A DNA stretch of 64,000 bases, taken from positions 2,912 through 66,911 of the forward strand of contig JBBSHU010000003.1 in assembly GCA_038232455.1 (NCBI GenBank), given 5' to 3'. Below, piece after piece: positions 5,318 through 63,782 of the stretch. This DNA is from Acidimicrobiales bacterium. GTDB taxonomy: Bacteria > Actinomycetota > Acidimicrobiia > Acidimicrobiales > AC-14. A program made the translations under genes and the position numbers. Every line of letters starts with the position of its first letter. Position 1 is the stretch's first letter. The notes beneath the pieces are model-generated. The model was not told where the DNA came from, made no database searches, and was given only the letters and a program-made list of their open reading frames with translations.

Positions 5318-5346
5318 GTCGCGGATGACCGAGACGAGTCTGACCG

Positions 5347-24431: not shown

Positions 24432-24475
24432 CCTAACGTGGGGCTCGACCGAGACCAGAGCGGGAGCGACGCACG

Positions 24476-25293: not shown

Positions 25294-25329
25294 CTGAAGG
25301 ATGATCGCGCGGGCCGGGCAACTACTACC

Positions 25330-27462
25330 GTGGGAACCGTGACCGAATTGGATGTCAGAGCCGAGGGCGGCGACTCGGGGGCGTCGTCGGAGCACGGCGG
25401 CGAGCGCCGGTACCTCAACCGCGACCTGTCGTGGCTCGACTTCGCCGGCCGGGTGCTCACGCTGGCCGAGGACGACCACCAACCGGTGCTCGAAAGGGCG
25501 AAGTTCCTCGCTATCTTCAGTGACGGCCTCGACGAGTTCTTCCAGGTCCGCGTCGCCGGGCTCAAAGAGCAGGTCGCCGCCGGTCTGGGGGCCACCAGTC
25601 CCGACGGCATGAGCCCCACCGAGCAGCTACGCGCCATCTGCGAACGGGTGCACGAGCTGTTCGCCCGCCAGAGCCGGGCGTTCCTCGAAGGCGTGGCGCC
25701 GGGGTTGGCCGAAGCCGGCGTGGTGTTGTCCGACTGGGACTCGCTCGACGACGACGACCGCGAGTTCCTGGTGACGGCGTTCCACGAGCGCATCTTCCCG
25801 GTGCTGACCCCCCTTGCCGTCGACCCCGGCCATCCCTTCCCGTACATCTCGAACATGTCGCTGAACCTGGCGGTGACCGTGCGCGACGCCAACACGGGCG
25901 AGAACCGTTTCGCGCGGGTCAAGGTTCCCCCGCTGCTTCCCCGGTTCGTCGTGATGCCCGACGGTGAGCGTTTCGTGCCCATCGAACAGGTCATCGCCGC
26001 CCACCTGGGCACCTTGTTCCCGGGGATGGAGATCCAGGACCGGGAGTCGTTCCGGGTCACCCGAAATGCCGACCTGGCCATGGAGGAGGGCGAGGCCGAC
26101 GATCTGCTCGCGGCGGTGGAGCTGGAGCTGCGGCGGCGCCGGTTCGGCCGGGCCGTACGCCTCGAGGTCGACGCCAAGATGACCGAGGAGACCCGCCAGT
26201 TGCTCATGCGGGAGATGGAGATCCAGCCCGACGATCTCTATCCCGTCGAGAGCCCGCTCGACCTGGCCGGGCTGTGGTCGGTGTACGAGCTCGACCGTCC
26301 CGAGCTCAAGGACGAGACCTGGGTCGGCATCACCCAACCGGCGCTCGTCGACGCCGAAGGCGACCCCGCCAACGTGTTCGCCGTGCTGCGCGAGCGCGAC
26401 ATCCTCGTTCACCATCCCTACGACTCGTTCACCACGTCGGTGGTGGCCTTCGTGGAGCAGGCGGCCGCCGACCCGAGCGTGCTGGCCATCAAGCAGACCC
26501 TCTACCGCACGTCGGGCGACAGCCCCATCGTCAAGGCGCTGATCCGCGCCGCCGAGGCGGGCAAGCAGGTCGCCGTGCTGGTCGAGCTCAAGGCCCGTTT
26601 CGACGAGCAGGCCAACATCGCCTGGGCCCGTGCGCTCGAAGAGGCGGGGGTCCACGTGGTCTACGGGCTGGTCGGCCTGAAGACCCACACCAAGACCGCC
26701 CTGGTCGTGCGCGACGAGCCCGAGGGGATTCGCCGCTACTGCCACATCGGCACCGGCAACTACAACCCCAAGACGGCGCGGCTCTACGAGGACCTGGGCC
26801 TGCTGTCGGCCGATCCCGACCTGGGGTCCGACCTGAGCGAGTTGTTCAACTACCTCACCGGCTACAGCCGCAAGTCGCAGTACCGCAAGCTCCTCGTGGC
26901 CCCGCTGTCGTTGCGCTCGGAGATGGTGGGCCTCATCCAGGCCCAGCGCGACGCCGGCTCCGAGGGGCGGATCGTGATGAAGATGAACAGCCTGGTCGAC
27001 TCGGCGGTCATCGACGAGCTCTACGCGGCGTCGGAAGCCGGGGTCAGCATCGACCTGATCGTGCGGGGGATCTGCTGCCTGCGGCCCGGAGCGGATGGGC
27101 TGTCGGAGAACATTCGCGTCCGTTCGATCGTGGGCCGCTACCTGGAGCACTCCCGCATCTACGCCTTCGGACAACGCGAAGAGCGCCGGTACCTCATTGG
27201 TTCGGCCGACCTCATGCCCCGGAACCTGGACCGCCGCGTCGAGGCTGTCACGCCCATCGAGGATGTCGAGCTGCAGGCCCGCCTCCAGGAGATTCTCGAC
27301 GTGTGCCTGTCTGACGACCTGCTGGCCTCGGAGCTGCACGCCGACGGGTCGTGGCAAAAGGTCGCGGTCGAGAAGGAGGTCAACGCCCAGCTCCGCCTCC
27401 ACGAGCTGGCCCTCGAGCGGGGCCGGCGCCGGCGGGAGGCGGACGCGGTGAGACGTAGCTAA
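25330..27462 (+). CDS. ppk: polyphosphate kinase 1
   Basis: RYLNRDLSWLDFAGRVL, FLAIFSDGLDEFFQVR and HTKTALVVR, then two PLD-like C-domains (HSRIYAF). GTG 25330 or 25339 as start. Confidence 0.95.
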   Translation: MGTVTELDVRAEGGDSGASSEHGGERRYLNRDLSWLDFAGRVLTLAEDDHQPVLERAKFLAIFSDGLDEFFQVRVAGLKEQVAAGLGATSPDGMSPTEQLRAICERVHELFARQSRAFLEGVAPGLAEAGVVLSDWDSLDDDDREFLVTAFHERIFPVLTPLAVDPGHPFPYISNMSLNLAVTVRDANTGENRFARVKVPPLLPRFVVMPDGERFVPIEQVIAAHLGTLFPGMEIQDRESFRVTRNADLAMEEGEADDLLAAVELELRRRRFGRAVRLEVDAKMTEETRQLLMREMEIQPDDLYPVESPLDLAGLWSVYELDRPELKDETWVGITQPALVDAEGDPANVFAVLRERDILVHHPYDSFTTSVVAFVEQAAADPSVLAIKQTLYRTSGDSPIVKALIRAAEAGKQVAVLVELKARFDEQANIAWARALEEAGVHVVYGLVGLKTHTKTALVVRDEPEGIRRYCHIGTGNYNPKTARLYEDLGLLSADPDLGSDLSELFNYLTGYSRKSQYRKLLVAPLSLRSEMVGLIQAQRDAGSEGRIVMKMNSLVDSAVIDELYAASEAGVSIDLIVRGICCLRPGADGLSENIRVRSIVGRYLEHSRIYAFGQREERRYLIGSADLMPRNLDRRVEAVTPIEDVELQARLQEILDVCLSDDLLASELHADGSWQKVAVEKEVNAQLRLHELALERGRRRREADAVRRS

Positions 27463-27624
27463 GTGCCCCATCAGGCGACATCTACCGCGCTCACGCCGGC
27501 CAGGACCACCGCTGACGGCGTCCTCGTCCCCGCCGTACGGCAGAGGGTGGGGCTTCGTCCTGCGGCCTTGCCGGCGGCGCTCCTGGCTCGCCGTGAGCAT
27601 CGCCAACGTCACCTGATGGGACAC
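27463..27624. repeat. imperfect long palindrome filling the ppk/CHAD intergenic spacer
   Basis: gtgccccatcaggcgac (27463-27479) pairs 15/17 with gtcacctgatgggacac (27608-27624). Nested arms are gctcacg/cgtgagc, gccagga/tcctggc and acggcg/cgccgt. Confidence 0.6.
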
Positions 27625-27626
27625 TA

Positions 27627-29147
27627 GTGTCACCCACGAGATCGGCCACCGAGCGTGAGGTCAAGCTCGGGGCGCGGGCCGGATTTCGCCTTCCCGATCT
27701 CGACGGCGTGTTCGAGGGTGTGACGTCGGCCCCGCTGGCCGAGCGCGACCTCAAGGCGGTGTACTACGACACTGACGACCTCCGCCTGGCGCGGTGGGGC
27801 GTCACCGTGCGCCATCGCACGGGCGAAGGCACGGTCTGGACGGTGAAGCTCCCCGAGGGGGAGGAAGGCCCCGCCCTCGTGCGGCGGGAGGTGAGTTGCG
27901 ACGGCCCCGCCGACACGGTTCCCGACGAGGCCCTCGGCCTGGTCCGTGCCTACCTGCGGCAAGAGCCTCTCGTGGTCGTCGCCCACATCCACACCAAGAG
28001 GTCGGGGGTGGTCCTGAGCGATGTCGAGGGCCAGCAGGTGGCCGAGGTGGTCGACGACGAGGTGTCGGTGCTCCACGGCGGCCGGGTGGCCGCCCGCTTT
28101 CGCGAGGTGGAGGTCGAAGTCGCCGATCGGGCCGCGTCCGGTCTGATCCACGCGGTTGTCGGGCGGCTCCGTGAAGCCGGGGCCGGCAAGCCCGACGCAA
28201 CGCCGAAGTTGGTGCGCGCCCTGGGCGAGCGAGCCCTGGAACCCGCAGAGTTGTCGGGCGTCGAGCTCGGTGAGGAGCCCACCGCCGCCGACGTGATCCG
28301 GGCGACCATGGTGGAGTCGGTCACGCGGATCCTGCGCCACGACGCCGGCGTTCGCCTCGGCGACGACCCCGAGGACATCCACCAGGCGCGCGTCGGCACC
28401 CGCCGTCTGCGCTCCGACCTGCGAACGTTCGCTCCCCTGCTCGACGACGAATGGGTCAAGTCTCTGCGCCGCGACCTCAAGTGGCTGGGCGGCGAGCTGG
28501 GAGCCGTACGCGACGCCGACGTGTTGGCCGAGCGGCTGAGGAAGCAGGCCGACGCCCTTCCTGAGCGCGACGGTGCCGGCCTGGCCCCGCTGTACCGCCG
28601 GTTGGCCAAGGAACGCGAGGAAGCGGGCACCCGGCTGCTCGCGGCCATGTCGGGCGACCGTTACGTCGACCTGCTCGACCGCCTGGTCTCCGGTGCCAGT
28701 GCCCCGGAGGTGCGCCGGGAGGCCGACGGGCCCGCCCGCCGGGTCGTGCCCGACTTGGTGGGCCGCCCGTGGCGTCACCTCAAGAAGGTGGTCGGCCAAC
28801 TGCCGTCGGAGCCTTCCGACGCCGAGCTCCATGAGGTTCGCATCCGGACCAAGCGCACCCGGTACGCCGTGGAAGCGGCCATCCCCGCGGTCGGTGGCGG
28901 GGCGAGGAAGTTCGCCAAGTCGCTGGCCCGTCTGCAGGCCGTGCTGGGTGACCATCAGGATGCGGTCGTCGCCGAGGAGTGGCTACGCAAGGCGGCCAGC
29001 GAGGCCGGCGGGGCGAGTGCGGCCGAAGCTTTGGCGGCAGGCGAGCTCATCGCCGTACAGCGGGCCGAGGAGGCCACCAGCCGGGCCGCCTGGCCGGCAG
29101 CCTGGAAGAAGGTGACCCAGAAGAGGCGGCGGTCGGGGCTTGGGTGA
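27627..29147 (+). CDS. CYTH (triphosphate tunnel metalloenzyme) plus CHAD domain protein
   Basis: N-terminal EREVKL (ExExK), then CHAD motifs IHQARVGTRRLRSDLR, LHEVRIRTKRTRYAVE and LGDHQD. Confidence 0.9.
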   Translation: MSPTRSATEREVKLGARAGFRLPDLDGVFEGVTSAPLAERDLKAVYYDTDDLRLARWGVTVRHRTGEGTVWTVKLPEGEEGPALVRREVSCDGPADTVPDEALGLVRAYLRQEPLVVVAHIHTKRSGVVLSDVEGQQVAEVVDDEVSVLHGGRVAARFREVEVEVADRAASGLIHAVVGRLREAGAGKPDATPKLVRALGERALEPAELSGVELGEEPTAADVIRATMVESVTRILRHDAGVRLGDDPEDIHQARVGTRRLRSDLRTFAPLLDDEWVKSLRRDLKWLGGELGAVRDADVLAERLRKQADALPERDGAGLAPLYRRLAKEREEAGTRLLAAMSGDRYVDLLDRLVSGASAPEVRREADGPARRVVPDLVGRPWRHLKKVVGQLPSEPSDAELHEVRIRTKRTRYAVEAAIPAVGGGARKFAKSLARLQAVLGDHQDAVVAEEWLRKAASEAGGASAAEALAAGELIAVQRAEEATSRAAWPAAWKKVTQKRRRSGLG

Positions 29148-29164
29148 CGAGGAGGCGGCGGCAC

Positions 29165-29557
29165 ATGGATGAGGTCGTGCAGGCGGCGGGTGGGGTCGTG
29201 TGGCGCCACGGACCCGGCGGCGTGGAGATCCTCCTCGTCCATCGACCGAAGTACGACGACTGGAGCCTTCCCAAGGGCAAGCTCGACGCCGGCGAGACCT
29301 CGGAGGCGGCGGCGCTGAGGGAGGTCGAGGAGGAGACGGGGATGCGCTGTTCGCTCGGTGACGAGTTGCCGCCGGTCACCTACGCCGACCGCCACGGACG
29401 GGCCAAAATCGTGCGCTATTGGGCCATGGAGCCCGTGGGTGGGAAGTTCGCCCCCAACCACGAGGTCGACGAGGTGCGCTGGGTCACACCGGCGGGAGCC
29501 GGCGCTCTGCTGTCCTACGCCCGCGACAAGCGGGTCACCGAATCGCTGTCGGTCTGA
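29165..29557 (+). CDS. NUDIX hydrolase (MutT1 N-domain-like)
   Basis: Nudix box GKLDAGETSEAAALREVEEETG; 130 aa. Confidence 0.9.
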   Translation: MDEVVQAAGGVVWRHGPGGVEILLVHRPKYDDWSLPKGKLDAGETSEAAALREVEEETGMRCSLGDELPPVTYADRHGRAKIVRYWAMEPVGGKFAPNHEVDEVRWVTPAGAGALLSYARDKRVTESLSV

Positions 29558-29577
29558 CGTTCTACGATTTCGCGCCA

Positions 29578-30042
29578 ATGACCGTCTACCTCGTTCGCCA
29601 CGGCAAAGCCGGCAGTCGCCACGACTGGAACGGTCCCGACGACGAGCGCCCGCTGAGCAAGCGGGGGCGGCGTCAGGCGGAGGCGTTGGTCGACCTGCTC
29701 GCCGATCGCGGCATCGTGAGCGTGTTCTCCAGCCCGTCGGTTCGCTGCGTCCAGACGGTGGAGCCCCTGGCCGACAAGCTCGGGCTGGGAATTGATCTCC
29801 GTGTCGAGTTGGGCGAGGGCACGGCGAAGGACGATGTTGCCGGGTTCGTCGGTGATCTGCTCTCCACGACCGCGGCGGTGTGCAGTCACGGCGACATGAT
29901 CCCGATCATCCTCGAAGTGCTGGCGACCGATCACGGACTCGAGCTCCCCGACGACTACCCGTGTGCCAAGGGGTCGGTCTGGGCACTGGTCGACGACGGG
30001 TCAGGCCGGATGGCGGCCAAGTACCTCCCGCCACCGGGATAG
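29578..30042 (+). CDS. sixA: histidine phosphatase family protein (SixA-like)
   Basis: VYLVRHGKA (RHG catalytic motif), RPLSKRGRRQA and CSHGDMIP. Confidence 0.85.
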   Translation: MTVYLVRHGKAGSRHDWNGPDDERPLSKRGRRQAEALVDLLADRGIVSVFSSPSVRCVQTVEPLADKLGLGIDLRVELGEGTAKDDVAGFVGDLLSTTAAVCSHGDMIPIILEVLATDHGLELPDDYPCAKGSVWALVDDGSGRMAAKYLPPPG

Positions 30043-30275
30043 GTCCGCCGACTCAGTGAGGGAGGGGGGACTCGACGCGAGCGCGTCAGTCAGCGTCACC
30101 CTCTGCCCGAATGTCTCCGTCTTCACCCGAACTGATCCGCCCATAGCACTCACCGCCTCAACAACTACCCCAATCCGGAAGACCTTCTGCGCAGGAAGAG
30201 TTCCCGGTCTACTGGTAAAAGCCGGTCACGGCGCTTGGTCCTCCTTCGACCTTCCATCGCGAGCAGACTGCGATC

Positions 30276-31244
30276 GTGCGCCCCCGTGACGCCTCCGTGA
30301 TCGATCTTCTCGTCGTCCTCGCCCTACCGGTCCTGCTTGTCCTGTCGGCGTGCGGCGGCAGCCAACCCGACCGCACCGCTGGGCCGGCGACGTCTGCGAC
30401 CCTCCCCGCGACGGAGCGTCAGACGATCACCTGGGACGGGCAGAGCCGAACCTACCTACTGCACCGCCCGGCGGGCCAGGCGCCGGGCCGCCGTCCTCCT
30501 CTGGTCATCGTGCTCCACGGCGCTTCCGTCACCGCCGAGCAGACGGAGCGCTACTACCGCTGGGACCCCCTGGCCGATGCCAGTGGATTCGTCGTCGCCT
30601 ACCCGCAAGGAATCAACAACGCCTGGAACGCCGGTTCGTGCTGCGGCGACGCCCCCAATCGCGGCACCGACGACATCGGGTTCATCAACGCGGTGATGAC
30701 CGATGCCTCCGAACGTACCGACGCCGACCCGTCGCGCCGGTATCTCACCGGAGTGTCTAACGGGGCCATGATGACCGTGCGCTACCAGTGCCAGCGGCCG
30801 GAGCAGCTGGCGGCGATCGGTTCGGTGGCAGGAACATTCACCTCGCCGTGTGACCAGCCGCCGCCGGTTCCCTTCATCGCCATCCATGGCGTCGACGATC
30901 AGGTCGTGTCATTTGCCCAGAGCTCAAACACCGCAGAAGCCGGCTCCCGCATGCGTCTTCCTGCCGTCGAGATGGTCGCCCGCTTCCTCGCAGCCGACCG
31001 TTGCCATGATCCGGTGACACGGTCGGCCGGTCCGGTCCACACCCAAACGGCGTCCTGCGACCCGGGGCTCGACGTCGAAGTGATCACCATCGACGGCGCC
31101 GGCCATCAGTGGCCCGGGGCCACGATTGATGGCGCCCGCCTGGCGATGGACGGTCCACGCAACCAGCCGAGCAAGGCGATCGACGCGACGGCCGAGCTGT
31201 GGTCGTTCTTCGCGGCCCACCCGCCCTCTCCGACCGGACGGTGA
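30276..31244 (+). CDS. PHB-depolymerase-family esterase lipoprotein (LpqC-like)
   Basis: Lipobox LVLSAC. PLVIVLHG..., AYPQG...WNAGSCCG, GVSNGAMM (G-x-S-x-G) and IAIHGVDD. Confidence 0.8.
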   Translation: MRPRDASVIDLLVVLALPVLLVLSACGGSQPDRTAGPATSATLPATERQTITWDGQSRTYLLHRPAGQAPGRRPPLVIVLHGASVTAEQTERYYRWDPLADASGFVVAYPQGINNAWNAGSCCGDAPNRGTDDIGFINAVMTDASERTDADPSRRYLTGVSNGAMMTVRYQCQRPEQLAAIGSVAGTFTSPCDQPPPVPFIAIHGVDDQVVSFAQSSNTAEAGSRMRLPAVEMVARFLAADRCHDPVTRSAGPVHTQTASCDPGLDVEVITIDGAGHQWPGATIDGARLAMDGPRNQPSKAIDATAELWSFFAAHPPSPTGR

Positions 31245-31551
31245 CCAGGGCGGGGCCTCATCTGATTTGGCTTGAGGCCGTCGAGGCGCTCCTGGCGACC
31301 TTCGTGGTCAGGAACGCAAAACGATGGGCACTTACTCGAAGACTCCGTAACCTGGCTCGGAGCCGCAGTAGTTCCAGCCGTCACGATGGCCGCAGTCGAC
31401 CAGTTGTAGGTGCCATAGTCCGTCGAGATGAACGCCGGGCAATCGGCGTGCAGGAAGAAGACTCGGCGCTGGCCGCAACCGGCGTCAGGCGGTCCGTGAA
31501 CGGGCGTTCGATCCGCTGCATGCCCGGGTCGGCCGAATTCGACACGCGTTG

Positions 31552-31631
31552 CCGTGTGCCAAGGGGGTCTGGGAGCTGTCGACGACGGGTCAGGTCGGAT
31601 GACGGCCGAATATCTGGCGCCGCCGGGATAG
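31552..31631 (+). pseudogene. displaced, decayed copy of the sixA 3' end
   Basis: Manual alignment to 29959-30042 gives about 70 of 80 aligned positions identical, with a 3-nt gap and a 1-nt gap. It ends in the same ...CCGGGATAG stop context, and the reading frame is broken by the 1-nt gap. Confidence 0.6.
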
Positions 31632-31664
31632 TTCGGACTTCGCGCTCCGTTGAAACCCGTGAGA

Positions 31665-31934
31665 TCAGGTGGGCTTCTCGGCGACCTCCTCGGCCAGGTC
31701 GGCCATTGTCTCCTGACCACTGAAGGTGTCCCGCCCCTCCTCGCGACCGGGCGGCGCGGCGTTGGCCGTCTCATAGGCCGCCCCCTCGGTATTGTCGGGC
31801 CCCTTGTCGAGCGTGACATTCGCCCCGCAGTGGGGGCAGGTCACCAGCCCGATTTCGATGTTGGCGGCGTGTTGGCCCATCTCGCTGGGGAGATCCTTGC
31901 CGCAGCTCGGGCACGTCTGTTCGGACATCTGCAT
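31665..31934 (-). CDS. small zinc-ribbon protein
   Basis: MQMSEQTCPSCGKDL...VTCPHCGANV (two CxxC pairs) with an acidic tail. SD gaggtg lies upstream. The start is either 31934 or 31928. Confidence 0.5.
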   Translation of the reverse strand: MQMSEQTCPSCGKDLPSEMGQHAANIEIGLVTCPHCGANVTLDKGPDNTEGAAYETANAAPPGREEGRDTFSGQETMADLAEEVAEKPT

Positions 31935-31988
31935 CACCTCGATACAGGCGCTACCCACGCGGAGGCCGTCCCCAAACGGCCACCTACC

Positions 31989-32855
31989 ATGACGACCATG
32001 GATGCAATCCGTTCGCCGGACCAAGTCCAGGCCGCCCTTCGCGCCCAGGACTACCTGGCCGACCGGGGCCTGGCAACTGCGGTGTTCCTCGCCTTGTCCC
32101 TGGGTCGGCCCCTTCTCCTCGAGGGTGAGGCGGGCGTGGGAAAGACCGAGGTGGCCAAGGCGCTGGCCGCCATGCTCGACGTCGAGCTCATCCGCCTCCA
32201 GTGCTACGAGGGCATCGACGCCAGCCAGGCCCTCTACGAATGGGACTACGCCCGCCAGCTTCTGGCCATCCGGGCTGCACCGGGCGAGGCCGCCGTTGCC
32301 GACCTGTTCAGTCCCGACTTCCTCGTCGAACGCCCGCTCCTCAAGGCCCTGCGTGCGGGAGACCGGGCGGTGTTGCTGATCGACGAGGTCGACAGGGCCG
32401 ACGACGAGTTCGAGGCTTTCCTGCTCGAGGTGCTCTCCGACTTCCAGGTCACCGTTCCCGAGCTGGGCACGATCCAAGCCGAGCGCCCGCCCCTCGTGAT
32501 CGTCACGTCCAACCGCACCCGAGACCTCCACGATGCCGTCAAGCGTCGCTGTCTGTACCACTGGATCGACTATCCGGACCTGCGACACGAAGTGGCGATC
32601 GTGACCGTTCGGGTTCCCGATGTACCCGCCGCCCTGGCCACCAAGGTCGCCGGTGCGGTGGCACGCCTGCGGAGCATGGACCTGGTCAAGCGGCCGGGCG
32701 TGGCCGAGACCATCGACTGGGTCAGGGCCCTCGCCGCACTGGGTGCCGGCGAGCTCGACGCGGACGCGGCGCGCGACACCCTCGGCGTCGTGGTGAAGGA
32801 CCACGACGACCTGACCGTGGTGACCGAACGCGTGAGTGAGATTGTCGACGGTTGA
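31989..32855 (+). CDS. coxD: MoxR-type AAA+ ATPase, CoxD-like
   Basis: Walker A LLEGEAGVGKTE, Walker B VLLIDEVDRA, and SNRTRDLHDAVKRRC. Position in the CODH cluster. Confidence 0.9.
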   Translation: MTTMDAIRSPDQVQAALRAQDYLADRGLATAVFLALSLGRPLLLEGEAGVGKTEVAKALAAMLDVELIRLQCYEGIDASQALYEWDYARQLLAIRAAPGEAAVADLFSPDFLVERPLLKALRAGDRAVLLIDEVDRADDEFEAFLLEVLSDFQVTVPELGTIQAERPPLVIVTSNRTRDLHDAVKRRCLYHWIDYPDLRHEVAIVTVRVPDVPAALATKVAGAVARLRSMDLVKRPGVAETIDWVRALAALGAGELDADAARDTLGVVVKDHDDLTVVTERVSEIVDG

Positions 32856-33957
32856 GGAGTCGCTCGTCGGCTTCGGCCGGGCGCTGCGTGCCGACGGCGT
32901 CACCGTTGGCACCGGCCAGTTGGCCTCCTATTGCGAGGCCGTGGCCCGGCTCGACCTCTCCGATGGCGAGGATGTCTACTGGGCAGGCCGGTCCTGCCTG
33001 GTGTCCCGCCGGGAAGACATTGCAAAGTATGATGCCATCTTCAAACGATGGTTTATTGACAGTGGTCGGCAATCTGAAGTGCGGATCAGCGGGATGCTGC
33101 GCCGGTTCTCCGTCGCCCTTCCGGGCGATCCGCCCAACGGCCCGAGGGTGCCGCCCGAAGTGCGCGAGGACGGTCCTCGCGGTTCGGTGGCGTCGGCCGC
33201 TGAACTGCTCCGGCGAAAGCGTTTCGCCGACTGCACCCCCGCCGAGCTCGCCGCCCTCCGCTCCCTCATGGCCCGGGTGCAGTTGGTCACCCCGTCCCGC
33301 CGCTCTCGCCGGACCGCTCCGTCGACGAGCGGTCGCTCCACCGACTTGCGCCGGAGCATCCGGCGATCGCTTCGTACCGAAGGCGAGATCCTCCGCCTGT
33401 GCCGTCGCGACCGCCAGCTCTGCCACCGCCGCCTGGTCCTGCTGCTCGACGTCTCCGGGTCGATGTCGGACTACTCCCGTGCGCTCCTGCAGTTCGCCCA
33501 CTCGGCCACCCGGGCTGGGCGAGTGCCGACCGAGGTTTTCTGCTTCGGCACTCGGTTGACCCGGGTGACCCACGAGTTGCGCCACCACCGTGCCGACCAA
33601 GCCCTGGACAAAGCGGCCGAGGCGGTCGTCGACTGGGAGGGCGGCACGCGCATCGGCGACTCGGTCGGCACGTTCCTCCGCATGTGGGGCCGCCGTGGCC
33701 TGGCGCGCGGGGCGGTCGTGGTCATCTGCTCTGATGGGCTCGACCGGAGTGACCCACAGCTGTTGGCCGCGGAGATGGCCAGGCTCAGTCGCCTCGCCCA
33801 CCGGGTGGTGTGGGTCAACCCCTTAAAAGGAGACCCCCGCTACGAGCCCCTGGCAAGGGGGATGAGCGCCGCTCTGCCCTTCGTCGACGCGTTCCTGGCC
33901 GGCCACAACCTTTCCAGCCTGGAAGCCTTGGCGGAATTGTTACCGCAGTTGGTCTGA
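32836..33957 (+). CDS. coxE: VWA-domain protein, CoxE-like
   Basis: GTG 32836 overlaps the coxD end. MIDAS LLLDVSGSMSDYS and VVWVNPLKGDPRYEPLARGM, typical of CoxE/VWA_CoxE. Confidence 0.85.
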   Translation: MRLSTVEESLVGFGRALRADGVTVGTGQLASYCEAVARLDLSDGEDVYWAGRSCLVSRREDIAKYDAIFKRWFIDSGRQSEVRISGMLRRFSVALPGDPPNGPRVPPEVREDGPRGSVASAAELLRRKRFADCTPAELAALRSLMARVQLVTPSRRSRRTAPSTSGRSTDLRRSIRRSLRTEGEILRLCRRDRQLCHRRLVLLLDVSGSMSDYSRALLQFAHSATRAGRVPTEVFCFGTRLTRVTHELRHHRADQALDKAAEAVVDWEGGTRIGDSVGTFLRMWGRRGLARGAVVVICSDGLDRSDPQLLAAEMARLSRLAHRVVWVNPLKGDPRYEPLARGMSAALPFVDAFLAGHNLSSLEALAELLPQLV

Positions 33958-33972
33958 ATCCTTACCACTGCG

Positions 33973-34001
33973 TTGACCCCGCTGACGGGCATGCGTATAT
34001 T
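33973..34001 (+). promoter_or_regulatory. near-consensus sigma-70-type promoter for coxMSL
   Basis: TTGACC (33973-33978), 17-nt spacer, TATATT (33996-34001). The predicted leader is ~130 nt to coxM ATG 34140. Confidence 0.5.
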
Positions 34002-34139
34002 CGGCTTGTCAGTCTGCCGGACGCGAAGGAGGCATTGGCGGGCCAGCACGACGGTGAATCCCGCAGGGTGGAACCACCGCTGTCGCTTCTGTCTCTTGCG
34101 CCCGGCCCACGCCGGCGCTGTCCCTTTTTCGGAGGTGAG

Positions 34140-35009
34140 ATGTTCCCGGCCAACTTCGACTACGTCGCTCCCACCACGGTCAACGAGGCGGTGAAGCTCC
34201 TCGCTGAGCATGGCGAGGACGCCAAGGTCCTCGCCGGTGGCCAGAGCTTGATCCCCCTCATGAAGCTGCGATTCGCCGCCCCTCTGTTGCTCATCGACAT
34301 CAATCGCATTGAAGGTCTAGACGACATAACGCTCGACAAGGCCGGCACGCTGCGCATAGGCGCGCTGGTGCGCAACCGGGCCCTGGAGCGTTCCGACCTG
34401 CTGAAGAAGAAGTACCCGACGATGGCCGCCGCAGCGCCGCTCATTTCCGACCCGATCGTGCGAAACCAGGGCACCTTCGTCGGATCGCTCTGCCACGCCG
34501 ACCCCCAGGGTGACTGGGGTTCGGTGATGCTCGCCCTCGGTGGCGAGATCGTGGCCCGCAGCACCAAGAGCACGCGCCGCATCCCCATCACCAAGTTCTT
34601 CGACGGCCCGTTCACCAGCGTGCTGCGGCCCGACGAACTGGCGGTGGGGGCTACCGTGGTCGACCCCGGCCCGAGGTCGTTCGGCACCTACCTGAAGCTG
34701 GAGCGCAAGGTCGGCGACTTCGCAACCGTCGGCGTGGCCGTGTTCGTGTCGACCGAGCGGGGCGTGGTGCGCCGGGCCGGCATCGGCCTCACCGGCGTGG
34801 GACCCGGCAACATCAAGGCCACCGAGGCCGAGCAGGCTCTGGTCGGCGCCCGCCTCAGTGCGAAGACGATTACCGAGGCCGCCCGACTGGCGGCCGCCGC
34901 CAGCGATCCCCAGACCGATGTTCGAGGAAGCGCAGACTATAAGCGCGACATAGTGCGGGTGTTCGTCGAGCGGGGCCTCACCCAATCCACGTCAGTCAAG
35001 GCTGCGTAG
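34140..35009 (+). CDS. coxM: CO dehydrogenase medium (FAD-binding) subunit
   Basis: [21 protein letters not shown]...[17 protein letters not shown], and the FAD_binding_5/CO_deh_flav_C pattern ...[11 protein letters not shown] ggaggtg lies upstream. Confidence 0.95.
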
Positions 35010-35022
35010 GCGAGGAGAAGCG

Positions 35023-35520
35023 ATGACTCAGTTCAGCGTCACGGTCAACGGTCAGAAATGGGAGGACGACATCGAGGCCCGGTTGCTGCTCGTGCACTTC
35101 CTCCGGGACAATCTCGTTCTTCAGGGCACCCACGTCGGCTGCGACACCACGAGCTGCGGAGCCTGCACCGTCCTCGTCGACGGGCTGCCGGTCAAGTCCT
35201 GCACCATGTTTGCCGTCCAGACCGATGGGCGTGAGATCACCACCGTCGAAGGCCTGAAGCAGAACGGCGAGCTCGACCCCATCCAGGTCGGCTTCAAAGA
35301 GGAGCACGGCCTCCAGTGTGGGTTCTGCACCCCCGGGATGATGTTGGTGAGCAGGGCCCTCCTGGACGAGAACCCGGACCCGTCCGAGGAGGAGATCCGC
35401 TGGGCCCTGTCCGGCAATCTCTGCCGGTGCACGGGGTACCAGAACATAGTGAAGGCCGTGCAGCACGCGGCCGAGGCCATGAAACCCGAGCCCGAGCCCG
35501 CCCTGTCCCGCCGCAAGTAG
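35023..35520 (+). CDS. coxS: CO dehydrogenase small ([2Fe-2S]) subunit
   Basis: [20 protein letters not shown] and NLCRCTGY cluster-binding motifs. Confidence 0.95.
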
Positions 35521-35533
35521 AGGAGACCCCTTC

Positions 35534-37903
<2,370 letters not shown>

Positions 37904-37912
37904 TCGTCGTTC

Positions 37913-38905
37913 GTGTCCGACCTCGAGGCCGATGAAGCCGGGCTTCGGCAACGACGGGAGGCCTTCGTGCGAGCGACGGTGGTCTGGACCCACCGACCAG
38001 TGTCGGCCGCCCCCGGGGACAAGGCCATCGTCACGGCCGATGGTCGGCTGCGCGGGTGGGTGGGCGGATCGTGCGCCGAGCCGATCGTGGTGCGCGAGGC
38101 CCGGCGTGCCCTGGAGGCGGGCACACCTCGTCTGCTGCGCCTCGGGCCGGGCCAGGCGGTATGCGACGACGATGGCGTGGTGACGGCCCCGGTGAACTGC
38201 GCCAGCGAGGGATCGCTGCACGTCTTCCTGGAACCGGTCCTGCCGCCCCTCCATCTGGTCGTAGTCGGCCGCTCTCCGTTGACCCGCGCCCTGGTCGGCA
38301 TGGCCGCCGTGCTCGGGTGGCGCACCGTCGTGGTCGAGCGTGACGACGACGACGCCGCCGACCTGTCGGAGCTCTCGGCCGCCGGTGGATCCATCGTGAC
38401 CGATCTCGACTTGGCCAAGGCTGAAGTCGATGCGTCGTCGTTCGTGGTGGTTGCCACCATGGGTCGCTACGACGAGGAAGCCCTGGAAGCGGCGCTGGCC
38501 ACCGACGCCCGCCACATCGCACTGGTGGCCTCCAGCCGGCGCGCCGAGGTCGTGCTGGACGGTCTTCGGGCGTCGGGGGTCGCCGAGGACTGCCTGGTTC
38601 GGGTGAAGAGCCCGGCCGGCCTGGCCCTCGGCGACCTGAGTCACGAGGAGACGGCGGTGGCCATCCTGGCCGAGATCGTGCAGGTGCGGAACGTCCTACC
38701 GGGTCCTGGGACGACCGGCTCCGTGCCCGAACGCACTCCCGCCGACGCTGTGGCAGAGGCGGTCGACCCGGTATGCGCCATGACGGTGACGATCGGCGCC
38801 ACCTCCGTCCGCCTCGACCTCGGCGGTAACACGTACTGGTTCTGCGGCCGCGGCTGCCGTCGACGATTCGAGAGCGACCCCGACCGCTGGCTCGCGTCGC
38901 CATGA
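37913..38905 (+). CDS. XdhC/CoxI-family maturation protein fused to a C-terminal YHS domain
   Basis: XdhC_CoxI N-domain (ATVVWTHRPVSAAPGDKAIV...WVGGSCAE), Rossmann-like VVVGRSPLTRAL, and a C-terminal DPVCAMTV...YWFCGRGCRRRFESDPDRW (YHS/TRASH-like). Confidence 0.8.
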   Translation: MSDLEADEAGLRQRREAFVRATVVWTHRPVSAAPGDKAIVTADGRLRGWVGGSCAEPIVVREARRALEAGTPRLLRLGPGQAVCDDDGVVTAPVNCASEGSLHVFLEPVLPPLHLVVVGRSPLTRALVGMAAVLGWRTVVVERDDDDAADLSELSAAGGSIVTDLDLAKAEVDASSFVVVATMGRYDEEALEAALATDARHIALVASSRRAEVVLDGLRASGVAEDCLVRVKSPAGLALGDLSHEETAVAILAEIVQVRNVLPGPGTTGSVPERTPADAVAEAVDPVCAMTVTIGATSVRLDLGGNTYWFCGRGCRRRFESDPDRWLASP

Positions 38906-40050
38906 GTGAGGTCGACGACGTCCTGGCTGCCCTCGCAGCACCTGGGGCCGAGGACATGGCGCTGGCCACGGTGGTCGGCGTGCAGGGCTCCACGTACCGA
39001 CGCGAGGGGGCACGCCTCGTGATACCCGCGACCGAGGGCGCGACCACGGTGGGCAACATCTCCGGAGGGTGCCTGGAAGGCGACGTGATCCTCGCGGCCC
39101 GGGCGGTTCTCGCGTCGGGGCGCCCGCAACTGCTTCACTTCGATCTCACCGCCGACGACGAGGCGGTCTGGGGGTGGGGCCTCGGCTGCAACGGAGCGAT
39201 CGACGTGTTCGTCGAGCCTGCGGCGCGAGCGGCGCCGTTCGTCACCGCCATGGCCGCGGCCAGGGCCCAGCAGCGGCCCCTGGCTCTGGCCACCGCCATC
39301 ACCGGCCGTGCCGTCGGCTCCCGAATGGTGATCCACGCCGACGGCCGGCGCGAGGGAACGTTCGGCGCCACCGACGACGAGGTGGCGGTCCTCGCTCGAG
39401 AGGCCCTTGCATCCAGGCGTTCGTCCACCACGACCATCGCCGATGGCGCACGCGTGTTCGTGGAGGTCGTCGTCCCGCCCACCAGGTTGGTGGTCTGTGG
39501 CGCCGGCCACGACGCCATACCCCTCGTAGAGTTCGGTGCCCGTCTCGGCTGGCGGGTCGAGGTGGTCGACAACCGTCCGGCGTTGCTGACGGCCGACCGG
39601 TTTCCCCAGGCGGCCCGCTTCGTCCGATGCCCCCCTGTGCAGGCCGCCGGGGAGGTGGGCCCCGACGAACGCACCTGCGTGGTCTTGATGAGCCACAACT
39701 TCCTACGGGACAAGGACTATCTCCAGTCGTTCCTCGGGATATCGCTCGCGTACCTGGGCATTCTCGGCCCCCGGGTACGCCTCGACCGTCTCGTCGCCGA
39801 GCTCCGGGCCGAGGGCGTCGATGTCGATCCAGCCGATCTCGATCGGGTCTACGCCCCGGCCGGGCTTGACATCGGCGCCGAGGGGCCCGAGGAGATCGCC
39901 TGGGCCATCGTCAGCGAGATCCTGTGTGCGGGCAATGGGGCCCCGGCCGGGTCGCTGCGGGACCGACCTGGGCCCATCCATGCCGTAGCCGGGCTTCGTG
40001 TCCAGGGCGTCACAAATACCAACCCGGAGGAGCCCGCCGTTGCGTATTGA
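38902..40050 (+). CDS. XdhC/CoxF-like maturation protein
   Basis: ATGA overlap with the previous gene. LATVVGVQGSTYRREGARLV...GNISGGCLEGDV, VVCGAGHDAIPL and GLDIGAEGPEEIAWAIVSEIL. Confidence 0.85.
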   Translation: MSEVDDVLAALAAPGAEDMALATVVGVQGSTYRREGARLVIPATEGATTVGNISGGCLEGDVILAARAVLASGRPQLLHFDLTADDEAVWGWGLGCNGAIDVFVEPAARAAPFVTAMAAARAQQRPLALATAITGRAVGSRMVIHADGRREGTFGATDDEVAVLAREALASRRSSTTTIADGARVFVEVVVPPTRLVVCGAGHDAIPLVEFGARLGWRVEVVDNRPALLTADRFPQAARFVRCPPVQAAGEVGPDERTCVVLMSHNFLRDKDYLQSFLGISLAYLGILGPRVRLDRLVAELRAEGVDVDPADLDRVYAPAGLDIGAEGPEEIAWAIVSEILCAGNGAPAGSLRDRPGPIHAVAGLRVQGVTNTNPEEPAVAY

Positions 40051-40498
40051 GAACCGTTTCACCGTGAAGCTCCCGGTCGACGAGACCTGGAAGGTGCTGT
40101 TCGACATCGAGGGCATCACTCCGTGCATGCCCGGTGCCGAGATCGACGAGATCACCGACGACGGGATCACCGGCTCGGTCAAAATCAAGCTCGGCGCCAT
40201 CCGCGCCCACTTCAAGGGCACCGTGGCGTTCACCGAGATGAACGAGGAGGCGAACCGCATGGTCCTGCACGCGGTTGGCCGGGAGGCGAAGGGTCTGGGC
40301 AACGCCACCGCCGACGTCACCGTGGTGCTGGCGCCGACCGACTCGGGCACCGACGTGAGCATCGACGCCGAGGTCATGATCACGGGCAAGATCGTCCAGT
40401 ACGGGCGAGGCGTCATCGTCGACGTCTCGGCCAAGCTGATCCGCCAATTCGTCGAGTGTCTCGAGGAAAGGCTGGCAGAAGAATGCAGGAGCGCCTGA
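40040..40498 (+). CDS. coxG: CoxG-like SRPBCC-fold protein
   Basis: TTG 40040 lies 8 nt after ggagga. FTVKLPVDETWKVLFDIEGITPCMPGAE...GSVKIKLGAIRAHFKG is typical of the COXG family. Confidence 0.8.
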   Translation: MRIENRFTVKLPVDETWKVLFDIEGITPCMPGAEIDEITDDGITGSVKIKLGAIRAHFKGTVAFTEMNEEANRMVLHAVGREAKGLGNATADVTVVLAPTDSGTDVSIDAEVMITGKIVQYGRGVIVDVSAKLIRQFVECLEERLAEECRSA

Positions 40499-41109
40499 TC
40501 GGCGATCCGTCGGTGGTCGTGGGCATCGTCCTCGGGGCCGGGGCCTCGAAGCGGCTCGGTCGGCCCAAGCAGACTCTGCCCTTCGGTGATACGACCTTGT
40601 TGGGCTGGACCCTGCGCAATGTCGAGGCGTCGGCCGTCGATCGGGTGGTTCTCGTGATCGGTGGAGCAGCCGACGACGTGCTGGTTGGCCTGGCGCCGGC
40701 CCGGGCAGAGGTCGTCCGCAGCGACGCCTACGCCACGGGGTGCGCGTCGTCCCTTCTTGCCGGCCTAAAAGCCGCCGGGGCCTGTGACGCGGTGATGCTC
40801 CTCCTCGGTGACATGCCCGGCGTGGACGCAGCGACGATCGACGAGGTGCGTACCGACTGGATTCACCGCCGGTCGTGGGGGGCGGTGACGAACTACCAGG
40901 GGGCTCTGGGCCACCCGTTCATATTCGGCGCCGAAGCCTTCGGAGCCCTGCGTGACCTTCACGGCGACAAGGCGGTCTGGAAGCTCCTCGAGGAACACCC
41001 CGACTTCGTGCGCACTATCCCCGTCGACCGGGTCCTGCCACTCGACGTGGACACGTGGGACGACTATGAAGCAATACTCAGAAACGTGCTAGACCGTCCG
41101 CTTCGGTGA
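40483..41109 (+). CDS. mocA: MobA-like nucleotidyltransferase (molybdenum cofactor cytidylyltransferase, MocA-like)
   Basis: GIVLGAGASKRLGRPKQTLPF...LLGDMPGV, the NTP_transf_3 pattern. Position next to CODH maturation genes. Confidence 0.75.
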   Translation: MQERLIGDPSVVVGIVLGAGASKRLGRPKQTLPFGDTTLLGWTLRNVEASAVDRVVLVIGGAADDVLVGLAPARAEVVRSDAYATGCASSLLAGLKAAGACDAVMLLLGDMPGVDAATIDEVRTDWIHRRSWGAVTNYQGALGHPFIFGAEAFGALRDLHGDKAVWKLLEEHPDFVRTIPVDRVLPLDVDTWDDYEAILRNVLDRPLR

Positions 41110-42152
41110 CCGAGCATCCCGATGCTCAGGAAGCGGCCGCGAACATGACCGTATCGGACACATTGGGCCGGCCGGTCCGGGACCTCCGCATCTCGGTCAC
41201 CGACCGATGCAATTTCCGCTGCACGTACTGCATGCCCAAGGAGATCTTTCACCGCGACTACGAGTTCCTGGCCCGGGAAGCGCTGCTCAGCTTCGAGGAG
41301 ATCGACCGGGTGGCCCGCTCGTTCGTGCGTCATGGCGTACGCAAGCTTCGCCTCACGGGTGGGGAGCCGCTCCTGCGCAAAGGAATTGAGGCGCTCATCG
41401 CCAAGCTGGTCGGGATTCCCGATCTCGACGACCTTACGCTGACTACCAACGGCGCATTGCTGGGCCGCAAAGCCCAGGATCTGGCCGCGGCCGGGCTTCG
41501 CCGGGTCACCGTGAGCCTCGACTCGATGGACGACGCCGTGTTCTCGGCCATGAACGAAGTGAGCTTCGGGGTGCGGGCGGTGCTCGAGGGGATCGCCGCT
41601 GCCGCCCAAGCCGGCCTCACCCCCATCAAGATCAACATGGTGGTGAAGCGGGGGGTCAACGAACGTTCGATCCTCGACATGGCCCGGCATTTCAAAGGCT
41701 CCGGGCACACCCTGCGATTTATCGAGTACATGGACGTCGGCACGACCAATGGCTGGCGACTCGACGAGGTGATCCCGGCCCGGGCCATCGTCGAGGCGCT
41801 GGACCGAGAGTTCGGAATAGAACCGCTGGACTCTTCCTACCGGGGCGAAGTGGCCCAGCGGTGGCGTTATCGAGACGGCACGGGGGAGGTGGGCGTCATC
41901 GCCTCGGTCACCGAACCGTTCTGCGGTGACTGCACCCGGGCTCGCCTGTCGGCCGAAGGTGTCGTCTACACCTGCCTATTTGCTACGCACGGGACCGACC
42001 TGCGCCAGGTAGTGCGGGCAGGTGCGAGCGCCGCGGTACTCGACGAAGCGGTGTCCGGGCTGTGGAGGAGCCGTGCCGACCGGTACTCCGAGACCAGGTC
42101 GTCACAGACCTGCGGCATCGACAAGGTCGAGATGAGCTACCTCGGTGGCTGA
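41106..42152 (+). CDS. moaA: GTP 3',8-cyclase (radical SAM)
   Basis: GTGA overlap with mocA. LRISVTDRCNFRCTYCMP (CxxxCxxC), LRLTGGEPLL, and C-terminal CGDCTRARLSAEG. Confidence 0.95.
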   Translation: MTEHPDAQEAAANMTVSDTLGRPVRDLRISVTDRCNFRCTYCMPKEIFHRDYEFLAREALLSFEEIDRVARSFVRHGVRKLRLTGGEPLLRKGIEALIAKLVGIPDLDDLTLTTNGALLGRKAQDLAAAGLRRVTVSLDSMDDAVFSAMNEVSFGVRAVLEGIAAAAQAGLTPIKINMVVKRGVNERSILDMARHFKGSGHTLRFIEYMDVGTTNGWRLDEVIPARAIVEALDREFGIEPLDSSYRGEVAQRWRYRDGTGEVGVIASVTEPFCGDCTRARLSAEGVVYTCLFATHGTDLRQVVRAGASAAVLDEAVSGLWRSRADRYSETRSSQTCGIDKVEMSYLGG

Positions 42153-42224
42153 CCAGCGGGGGACCGGTTCGACATGGCGCCACCGGGATAGTTCCCACTC
42201 GGGCGGAGGTATCGTTCCCCCCGA

Positions 42225-43754
42225 ATGCGAATCGCCGCCTTCGACCTGGGGACCAACTCGTTCCACCTCCTTGTCGTCGACGCGCATCCCGACGGAACCT
42301 TCGCCCCCCTCGTGCGGGAGAAGGAGATGCTGCGACTCGGCGACGTCGTCAGCCACGAGGGTCGGATCAGCGAGGCGGCCATGGCGCGCGCGGTCAACAC
42401 CGTGCGTCGGTTCCGCACCCAGGCCGAGGGAGTCGACAGCGACGACGTGGTGGCTTGTGCCACCAGCGCCATTCGCGAGGCCGACAACGGTGGCGAGCTG
42501 GTGGACCGGATCAAGTCGGAGGCCGGCGTCCGGGTCACGGTGATCAGCGGTATCGAAGAGGCCCGGCTGATCTTCGAGGCCATCCGGGCCAGTGTCGTCA
42601 TCGACCCGGGACCGGCCCTGTGCCTCGACCTCGGCGGCGGGAGCCTGGAGCTCATGGTCGGCGACACGTTGGGCCTGCGTTGGGCGTCGAGCGTGAAGCT
42701 GGGTGCGGCCCGACTCACCGCCGAGCTGGTGGGTGCCGACCCGCTGTCGGACGAGGACGTTCGGCGGCTCAGGGAGCGCGTCACTTCGATCCTGGCGCCA
42801 CTGGCTGACGAGGTCGTCCCCCTGCACCCGACCATGGCGGTGGGCACGAGCGGCACGTTCATGGCTCTGGCCCGGATGGTGGCAGCTCGGCGCCCGGGCG
42901 GCATCCCCACCTCCGTCAACCAGCTCAGCTTCAGCCGCGACGAGCTCCTGGCCGTCCACGACCAGATCATCAGGCTGTCGGCCGCCGACCGGGCCCGCCT
43001 GCCCGGCCTCGACGCCCGCCGGGCCGACATCATCCCCGCCGGGTCGGTGCTGCTGGTCACCGCCATGGAGCTGTTCGGCTTCGACGAGCTCACCGTGAGC
43101 GAGTGGGCGTTGCGCGAGGGCATCGTCCTCGACAGCATCAAGCGCCATGACGACGCCGACTGGAGCGGCGACCCACGGGCTATCCGCCTTTCGTCGGTGT
43201 TACGGCTGGCTCGGGGCTGCAACTGGGACGAGGGCCACAGTCGCCAGGTGACCCGGCTGGCCCTCGACCTGTTCGATCACACGCTGACCCTGCACGGTCT
43301 CACCGCGGCCGACCGGGAGCTTCTCGAGCACGCCAGCCTGCTGCACGACATCGGCGAACACGTCGCCACCGAGTCCCACCACAAGCACACCGCCTACCTG
43401 GTCCAGCACGGCCGACTGCGGGGGTTCTCGCCCGACGAGGTCACCGAAGTGGCGACCCTGGCGCGCTATCACCGCGGTGGGGATCCCCGACCTTCGTCGG
43501 ACGGCATGGCCGGCGTGGCCGCCACCCGCCGCGACAGCGTGTCCCGACTGGCCGCCCTGTTGCGGGTCGCCGACGGACTGGACCGGCGCCGGGCTGCGGC
43601 GGTCGGCGGGATCGAGGTGGACCTTGACATCACGCGGGTGCGGATACACGTGCGCTCCGACGACGACATCGACGTCGACCTGTGGGGCGGCCGCCGCAAG
43701 CGCGAGCTCTTCGAGCGTCTCTTCGACCGCCGCCTGGAGCTCGTCCGCGGTTGA
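42225..43754 (+). CDS. ppx: Ppx/GppA-family phosphatase with C-terminal HD domain
   Basis: IAAFDLGTNSFHLLV, ATSAIREA, LDLGGGSLEL and HD region LLHDIGEHV...HHKH. Confidence 0.9.
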   Translation: MRIAAFDLGTNSFHLLVVDAHPDGTFAPLVREKEMLRLGDVVSHEGRISEAAMARAVNTVRRFRTQAEGVDSDDVVACATSAIREADNGGELVDRIKSEAGVRVTVISGIEEARLIFEAIRASVVIDPGPALCLDLGGGSLELMVGDTLGLRWASSVKLGAARLTAELVGADPLSDEDVRRLRERVTSILAPLADEVVPLHPTMAVGTSGTFMALARMVAARRPGGIPTSVNQLSFSRDELLAVHDQIIRLSAADRARLPGLDARRADIIPAGSVLLVTAMELFGFDELTVSEWALREGIVLDSIKRHDDADWSGDPRAIRLSSVLRLARGCNWDEGHSRQVTRLALDLFDHTLTLHGLTAADRELLEHASLLHDIGEHVATESHHKHTAYLVQHGRLRGFSPDEVTEVATLARYHRGGDPRPSSDGMAGVAATRRDSVSRLAALLRVADGLDRRRAAAVGGIEVDLDITRVRIHVRSDDDIDVDLWGGRRKRELFERLFDRRLELVRG

Positions 43755-43788
43755 CGGCTCCAAAGACGCAGGCCGGACCTACGATCGG

Positions 43789-45033: not shown

Positions 45034-45039
45034 CTCCGG

Positions 45040-46230: not shown

Positions 46231-46284
46231 GACACGAATGCTACGTCGTCTGCCGCCTGTCGGTGGACGGGCCGCCGACGGCCG

Positions 46285-47523: not shown

Positions 47524-47632
47524 GGCGCGGCAGGTTACCGGCAGAGGCACTGATTTCTCTTTCAGGGTCGAAACCAGGACCCTCACCGAGCCCCGGGATC
47601 AGAAATCTGGATCCCCGGTAACATTTGGCACT

Positions 47633-49288: not shown

Positions 49289-49328
49289 CGGTAGAACGCT
49301 GACAAGAGTCCTCCACGACACTGGGGCT

Positions 49329-58492: not shown

Positions 58493-58582
58493 TTGTCGGG
58501 GACGGACACCGGGGCCTGCCGCCGCGAACCATTTGTCCCGACCCTCCACCGCACCGGGAGGCCCCGGCGTTACTCTGGCCGC

Positions 58583-63705: not shown

Positions 63706-63782
<77 letters not shown>

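Follow-up and report, generated by a model that had tools for sequence, protein, structure and literature searches.

The window analyzed here is a 64,000-nucleotide (nt) stretch of the genome of an Acidimicrobiales bacterium (GenBank assembly GCA_038232455.1, contig JBBSHU010000003.1, positions 2,912 to 66,911), and it contains a polyphosphate operon with the gene order ppk1-CHAD-nudix-sixA-ppx. Between sixA, which encodes a histidine phosphatase, and ppx, which encodes an exopolyphosphatase, lie an esterase gene, a form I carbon monoxide dehydrogenase (CODH) cluster, and moaA, together with repeats of the sixA 3' end. We propose that in one Acidimicrobiales clade, the sixA-ppx gap is probably a hotspot of horizontal transfer inside this operon, operating without mobile-element genes. 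Hotspots of this class are already known, and the case is an ordinary but instructive one.

Pfam upheld every gene identification of an earlier reading that was made from the letters of the window alone (the original prediction). These comprise ppk1, CYTH-CHAD, NUDIX, His_Phos_1 (sixA), Esterase_PHB, and a zinc ribbon; AAA (coxD), VWA_CoxE, coxM, coxS, coxL, two XdhC, CoxG, and MobA-like (mocA) within the CODH part; and MoaA and Ppx-GppA at the right end (Table 1). CoxL displays the form I active-site motif AYRCSFR, of the AYXCSFR class, and coxM-coxS-coxL are accompanied by coxD, coxE, xdhC, and coxG. The first of the two XdhC-family genes also encodes a C-terminal YHS (metal-binding) domain. 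Between the first two sixA-end copies, only lower-GC (guanine-plus-cytosine) noncoding DNA and one lipoprotein esterase gene had been noted, and this description holds: the two noncoding stretches, nc1 and nc2, have GC contents of 0.62 and 0.64, versus 0.70 for the whole window, and the gene is an Esterase_PHB member with a lipobox. An exact-protein look-up for Ppx returned no match.

Table 1. Genes, noncoding stretches, and sixA-end copies of the sixA-ppx region (positions in the window)
Feature	Position	Strand	Evidence or remarks
ppk1 (polyphosphate kinase 1), left conserved flank	25339..27462	+	Pfam PP_kinase N, middle, C1, C2
CYTH-CHAD protein	27627..29147	+	Pfam CHAD (1e-63) and CYTH
NUDIX hydrolase	29165..29557	+	Pfam NUDIX; ATG start, 130 aa as in relatives
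Intact sixA (histidine phosphatase of 154 aa), border gene on the left	29578..30042	+	Pfam His_Phos_1
Copy 1, last 84 nt of sixA and 4 nt past the stop	29959..30046	+	Alignment with copy 2
nc1, noncoding, no homologue	30050..30235		L291 has a CcdA/PemK pair here
Esterase_PHB-family lipoprotein, cargo module 1	30276..31244 (alternative GTG start 30297)	+	Pfam; lipobox LVLSAC
nc2, noncoding, no homologue	31238..31550		Overlapping open reading frame without Pfam match; apparently joined illegitimately to the sixA remnant at its right end
Copy 2, frameshifted stump (last 84 nt and 3 more) of a second sixA	31552..31634	+	70/80 aligned positions identical to copy 1
znr, zinc-ribbon gene (87 aa), left end of CODH module	31665..31928	-	Weak Pfam Zn-ribbon matches
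Form I CODH module	31989..41109	+	Pfam
coxD	31989..32855		
coxE	32836..33957		
coxM	34140..35009		
coxS	35023..35520		
coxL	35534..37903		
xdhC (first)	37913..38905		
xdhC (second)	38902..40050		
coxG	40040..40498		
mocA	40513..41109		
moaA (335 aa), separate third cargo module	41145..42152	+	Pfam Radical_SAM and Mob_synth_C
Copy 3, relic of the sixA terminus, apparently old (GGCGCCACCGGGATAGTTCC)	42176..42195	+	k-mer and alignment shuffle tests
Conserved ppx leader GGGCGGAGGTATCGTTCCCCCCGA, right border of hotspot	42200..42224		Similarity to relatives resumes here
ppx (exopolyphosphatase), right border gene	42225..43754	+	Pfam Ppx-GppA, domain III, HD

SixA homologues were surveyed in one genome per species, and closer SixA proteins (70-87% identity) were taken from a large protein collection, with comparison of their contigs; the loci are denoted here by L numbers. 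The order ppk1-CHAD-nudix-sixA-ppx(-MFS) is conserved in Acidimicrobiales and beyond, and ppx directly follows sixA in L002, L005, L019, L040, L048, L050, and L056, supporting sixA-ppx adjacency as the ancestral and still common state. The original prediction had supposed that sixA and ppx would be contiguous without the inserts; direct junctions are indeed present in L002, L005, L294/L295, L296/L297, and more distant genomes. It had also suggested looking for relatives with only one insert, and both kinds exist, since L291 carries the esterase without CODH and L301 carries an intact sixA followed by znr and coxD.

Across relatives, whose SixA proteins are 69-87% identical to that of the window, the gap holds very different genes. 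It contains a CcdA/PemK toxin-antitoxin pair in L299/L300 (SixA, 87%); a CcdA/PemK pair plus an esterase gene, with 92% DNA identity to that of the window, in L291 (SixA, 86% at the amino acid level; backbone, 93-95% at the nucleotide level); a membrane-protein gene in L001 (86%); and genes for an FHA protein, a Ser/Thr kinase, and a third product in L293 (85%). In L301 (82%), the intact sixA is followed by 38 nt, znr on the minus strand, and coxD, where the contig ends, while the gap is empty in L294/L295 (81%) and L296/L297 (76%). With the esterase-CODH-moaA allele of the window, seven alleles in total are bounded by the same two flanking genes.

The borders of these alleles coincide closely. 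Synteny with L291, L294, and L296 covers 24434-30049 and 42200-50363 of the window (at least 14 kb of flank), at 83-93% nucleotide identity, and its sole break is at 30050/42200; ppx is 86-95% identical in nucleotides to that of the relatives. Similarity on the left ends at 30035-30050 in all comparisons, up to 8 nt beyond the sixA stop; on the right, it resumes at 42199-42201 against L291, L299, L300, L293, and L001 and at 42204 against L296. The cargo begins 3-8 nt after the sixA stop codon in all alleles, a point that counts against the footprint of integrating elements. From the sixA stop it is roughly 20 nt to the conserved ppx leader, and from sixA to ppx itself the spacer measures about 50 nt. 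Different accessory genes lie between the same two orthologous core genes with collinear flanks, as in hotspots that lack mobile elements. A scan of metagenome contigs with SixA recovered only relatives of at most 52% identity. The assembly that contains L301 and a further contig, L305 (GCA_030155865.1), displays contig breaks or N-runs at the locus (L301, about 4014-4022; L305, end at 3159) and also carries a different allele, L293, a hint that strains from a single sample differ at the hotspot.

Three copies of the sixA terminus mark the locus in the window. As the original prediction had claimed, the last 84 nt of sixA (29959-30042) recur at 31552-31631 as a dead copy: the two agree in 70 of 84 alignment columns, which include two gaps (3 nt and 1 nt), and their similarity extends 3 nt beyond the stop codon. 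Because the 1-nt gap breaks the frame and no sequence resembling sixA lies 5' of 31552, copy 2 is a frameshifted stump. The 14-mer CGCCACCGGGATAG is found without mismatch at 30029-30042 and 42178-42191, with the variant CGCCGCCGGGATAG at 31618-31631; allowing up to one mismatch, it was observed four times in the window versus 0.16 expected from shuffles, and three of the four are the three copies. The third copy is an 18-nt core of the sixA end, recurring at 42178-42195 directly 5' of ppx; including its flank, it agrees with copy 1 in 17 of 18 positions and with copy 2 in 19 of 20. The original prediction, which had placed this copy at 42175-42194, had cautioned that so short a match might be due to chance, but none of 3,000 shuffles scored as high as the local alignment of the 45 nt 5' of the ppx leader to the sixA end. 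Direct repeats from the 3' end of the target gene therefore bracket inserted DNA twice over (copies 1 and 3, copies 1 and 2). The 3' end of moaA (42134-42149) is complementary to copy 3 (42179-42194), 29 nt away, at 13 of 16 positions, which could be a weak hairpin between moaA and ppx or a chance match. Searches 3' of sixA in 80 more distant loci found only chance-level 12- to 13-mers of the sixA end, except in L006 (5151-5190; a distant member of the Acidimicrobiia), where the 15-nt end of sixA, stop codon included, recurs in tandem 5 nt further on (CCTCCCCCGAGCTGA TGGGG CCTCCCCCGAGCTGA), a short duplication of the terminus that is independent of those in the window.

The origin of copy 2 is revealed by comparison with L301. 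Window positions 31551-32084 form a single alignment block with L301 3470-4012 (85.8% identity, 543 nt), a segment spanning the last 84 nt of the intact sixA, its spacer, znr, and the first part of coxD. The spacer to znr is 33 nt after copy 2 in the window and 38 nt after the intact sixA in L301. Judging from this collinearity of copy 2, spacer, and znr with the sixA-znr junction of L301, copy 2 is the remnant of a sixA that once directly preceded the CODH cluster. The CODH module is 90-95% identical at the nucleotide level to L301 and L305, of which L305 matches window positions 37961-41109 at 90%; znr is 91% identical to that of L301 and adjoins coxD in L082, L083, L095, and L301. L083 and L095 also have the order znr-coxDEMSL-xdhC-xdhC-coxG-mocA, but in other genomic contexts and without moaA. 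Identity matrices were used to seek a donor lineage for copies 1 and 2, but no clear donor emerged; copy 2 is nearest to L001 (88.8%) and copy 1 (87.5%) and not to L301 (80%). The flanks of the L095 cluster mostly lack Pfam matches, with the exception of one MazF toxin; this MazF/PemK toxin gene (5172-5489) adjoins the znr end of that closely related CODH cluster in its different genomic context.

Third-codon-position identity to L301 and L305 is 0.83-0.88 for the CODH genes versus 0.75-0.82 for backbone genes, from which the CODH cluster here would have roughly the age of the split between the two sub-clades, or be a little younger; divergence at silent sites is about equal for CODH genes and backbone. 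The esterase is common only to the window and its nearest relative, L291. Together with the collinearity of copy 2 and L301, the silent-site divergence fits the order of events given in the original prediction and would favor arrival of CODH first and of the esterase later, although the converse order needs an equal number of events.

The cargo of the window is a mosaic of at least three modules: the esterase, the form I CODH cluster from znr to mocA, and moaA. The original prediction had described two islands in tandem; the composite nature of the cargo stands, with its parts found separately in relatives, but there are at least three modules, with moaA set apart. Homology to the L291 esterase is confined to 30236-31237, and another relative of this gene, 74% identical (78% at the nucleotide level), lies in an unrelated context in L242. 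Comparison of nc1 and nc2 with all fetched loci, as DNA and in translation, gave no match, and they contain no trace of the toxin-antitoxin pair of L291. For moaA, homology of the CODH region to L305 stops exactly at the mocA stop codon, and the nearest MoaA homologues (87-88% amino acid identity; L302-L304) are encoded after Nfu/ApbC/IscA-type Fe-S assembly genes, in suf-type loci, and before sulfite reductase; this gene is therefore a third module. Standing alone behind the CODH cluster, the moaA of the window looks like a relocated or extra copy. The nearest relatives of the three modules lie in different contexts: L291 and L242 for the esterase, L301, L305, L083, and L095 for CODH, and suf-type loci for moaA.

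Copy 3 appears to have a different history. L294 has just 73 nt between sixA and ppx, and this near-empty site contains GGCACCGGGACAGGTCGG at the same distance from the ppx leader as copy 3; the BLAST alignment of the window with L294 reaches back to 42178, and the two elements also align in MAFFT. The L294 element resembles the window-type sixA end (shuffle p = 0.0003), while its similarity to L294's own sixA end is not significant (shuffle p = 0.89; second test p = 0.43). A weaker, degenerate relic, GCGCCAAGCCGGATAG, lies next to ppx in L001 (p = 0.035). No relic of copy 3 was demonstrable in L291, L293, L299, L296, or L002, and the empty sites L296 and L002 hold a single sixA-end copy. Conservation of copy 3, a check proposed in the original prediction, is thus partial. 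Because the nearly empty L294 site also has it, copy 3 was not created by the arrival of CODH. It is a real relic, which these alignments indicate to be older than the present cargo and which may have originated through either an early insertion or a small duplication.

We propose that the hotspot turns over by recombination in its conserved flanks, with occasional illegitimate joins. At the start, the CODH module would have stood directly behind an intact sixA, as in L301. Later, a DNA segment with a complete sixA 3' part and the esterase would have been joined in, and we infer that one crossover was homologous, in or upstream of sixA, while the other end was an illegitimate join at 31551/31552, 84 nt before the resident stop codon. 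As a result, the old sixA end would have been pushed downstream as a dead stump, namely, copy 2. Conversely, the same structure could have arisen if a CODH fragment starting 84 nt before the sixA stop of a donor had been captured 3' of the esterase, with ppx providing the homologous anchor. Copy 3, which marks the right-hand margin of the hotspot, would be an older duplicate of the sixA terminus that predates the cargo.

Several points weigh against this scheme. The 3' 285 nt of sixA are 85% identical to L291, versus 95-96% for the backbone, but the 3' part of the gene is more divergent in every pair of relatives; relaxed constraint explains this equally well, and no recombination tract could be demonstrated. 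Also, all cargo junctions lie within a few nucleotides of each other, which selection on the 50-nt spacer can explain, as would a site-specific enzyme. L301 and L305 are contig fragments, and the right end of the relatives' CODH allele lies outside them; tracing the closest MoaA and MocA homologues did not lead to that end either. The nc2/copy 2 junction rests on one assembly. Finally, copies 1 and 3 are still identical at 17 of 18 positions even though the relic seems older than the split from L294, an identity that drift alone does not predict and that could indicate a repeat-directed process.

The original prediction had interpreted the repeats as the footprint of elements that integrate into the 3' end of a gene and regenerate it. 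This explanation would involve two elements whose attP sites mimicked the sixA 3' end and that were integrated successively by a tyrosine or serine recombinase, with the integrase since lost or acting in trans. In its favor, target-gene-end repeats flank both the whole cargo and the esterase segment, several different cargoes sit at the same few nucleotides, a weak relic lies next to ppx in L001 as well, and copies 1 and 3 are almost the same in sequence; in integrative elements of actinomycetes, att identity segments may span 45-110 nt. Nevertheless, no recombinase, integrase, or transposase domain was found in any of the seven alleles (with precomputed Pfam assignments for L291, L293, L299, and L301; the open reading frame of the L001 insert has no Pfam match), so the remark of the original prediction that no integrase is present applies to the window and to six further alleles. 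All cargo open reading frames of the window belong to other Pfam families, leaving none unaccounted for that could encode an integrase, and the CODH module fills its space so tightly (33 nt and about 20 nt to the repeats) that there is no room for a decayed one. Prophage and conjugation genes were likewise not found at the hotspot. Furthermore, no element with the same ends, in the sense of cargo plus att sites, was found in other genomes: the L291 esterase has no sixA repeats on its flanks, the L301 CODH cluster follows an intact sixA, and the CODH clusters of L083 and L095 and the esterase of L242 lie elsewhere. The retention of a relic in the almost empty L294 site and the lack of sixA-end repeats in the distant loci other than L006 also speak against integration. 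The evolutionary side of the original prediction, with composite insertions into an ancestral sixA-ppx junction and CODH as the older one, is largely upheld. The classical integrating-element model is not supported, and we regard successive integration of this kind as unlikely.

The locus was also searched for other features. The sole tRNA gene of the window is at 63706, with none near the hotspot; Rfam at a permissive threshold gave one chance-level match over 29500-42400; and a promoter and terminator scan of 29900-32100 gave no excess over shuffles. A Xer/dif-like site and an integron attC were considered and rejected by eye, as the repeat resembles neither. The original prediction had also called for a comparison of composition between cargo and flanks, and overall the cargo deviates only weakly. 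Tetranucleotide usage is mildly deviant, marginally so for the CODH module (2 of 42 chunks as far away, with a leave-out reference) and more clearly for the whole cargo (0 of 40), but GC content at third codon positions does not separate the two, the cargo genes (0.80-0.91) overlapping the flanks (0.85-0.92).

A purely local origin is less probable still. In that case, slippage or unequal crossing-over would have duplicated the sixA end in place, cargo would have come in between the two copies, and most of the second would then have been deleted. The sixA end and the relic of L294 are just 26 nt apart, and L006 has its 15-nt tandem copy of the sixA terminus; however, the L294 relic is unlike L294's own sixA end, and copy 2 brings its own spacer and znr as in L301, pointing to a join of two alleles. 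More speculative, and improbable in our estimation, is the idea that the sixA terminus and the relic are recognition sites of a recombination system encoded elsewhere, such as a trans-acting integrase or a host Xer-like enzyme. If true, integrase-less cassettes (a toxin-antitoxin pair, an esterase, a 10-kb CODH cluster) would be shuttled into a polyphosphate operon by a cassette-capture platform distinct from integrons. Finally, an assembly chimera of coexisting strains with an esterase allele and a CODH allele, joined at their shared sixA sequence, is scarcely credible: the relatives come from metagenomes, contigs break here (L301, with an N-run, stops in coxD, and L305 stops 22 nt past mocA), and the independent contig L161 agrees with the window for sixA, nc1, and the esterase start only, but copy 2 is no intact sixA, starting abruptly 84 nt before the stop with two indels and 12% difference from copy 1, and given this divergence, no shared k-mer path leads from nc2 into copy 2.

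Two further features of the window region deserve mention. A second small insertion spot lies between nudix and sixA, where L001 (9446-10000) and L301 (2351-2997) carry a VapBC-like pair on the minus strand (PIN toxin and AbrB/MazE antitoxin); the window has a 20-nt spacer there (29558-29577) and no such pair. Also, a long open reading frame at 58493-60664 includes about nine tandem copies of the 15-nt unit CCCAAGGTCGACGCC, encoding PKVDA, at 59552-59746.

Tandem accretion at a gene's 3' end can give rise to integrase-less islands with att repeats, as exemplified by cis-mobilizable elements beside streptococcal integrative and conjugative elements at fda. There, as here, the tandem cargo has no integrase and is flanked by direct repeats of a protein-coding gene's end. 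Unlike at such islands, no cognate integrase-bearing element occupies the site in any relative examined, and the repeats here are unequal (84 nt versus 18 nt), with one apparently older than the cargo.

Hotspots that lack mobile elements and turn over via recombination in flanking core genes have been documented (Oliveira, Touchon et al. 2017, PMC5635113). They share with the sixA-ppx gap two core genes that flank variable accessory content in close relatives, rapid turnover, the lack of integrase, transposase, and tRNA genes, and a cargo of toxin-antitoxin and adaptive metabolic genes. The present case differs in that its spacer, about 50 nt long, belongs to an operon and bears two scars of the upstream gene's 3' end; flank recombination is here a proposed process.

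C-terminal displacement arrays, found among Rhs, contact-dependent inhibition, and type VI secretion effector-immunity orphans, offer a second parallel. Homology-facilitated illegitimate recombination, consisting of one homologous crossover in a conserved gene and one illegitimate join, has been proposed for them (PMC5361080). In both situations, an intact gene is followed by a displaced, dead 3' fragment that is still joined to its former downstream neighbor, and the incoming DNA supplies a new 3' end and new cargo. However, SixA is a small housekeeping-type phosphatase (His_Phos_1 only) and not a polymorphic toxin with an immunity gene, there is no selection here for variable C-termini, and one stump only has been displaced.

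Frequent horizontal transfer of form I CODH has been reported in soil Actinomycetota (PMC13554262). As in those clusters, a complete coxMSL set with accessory genes is patchily distributed here and stands in different contexts in related genomes. In contrast to them, nucleotide resolution is available here for the insertion site, the two borders, and the intermediate alleles, and no mobile element is associated.

The sixA-ppx gap therefore provides a nucleotide-level example of how a complete pathway for atmospheric CO oxidation enters and leaves the genomes of uncultured soil Acidimicrobiales. CODH moves as a module of roughly 9.5 kb, from znr to mocA, into a tiny permissive spacer of a conserved operon, with no mobile element recognizable, in line with recent work in which CO dehydrogenase and hydrogenase genes rank with those most often transferred in oligotrophic soils. 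For genome scanning, the lesson is that cargo bracketed by copies of a gene's 3' end is not necessarily an integrase-driven island. Placement of CODH within a polyphosphate (starvation) operon may affect its expression, and the locus is a defined place at which to follow gain, loss, and replacement of such genes across strains.

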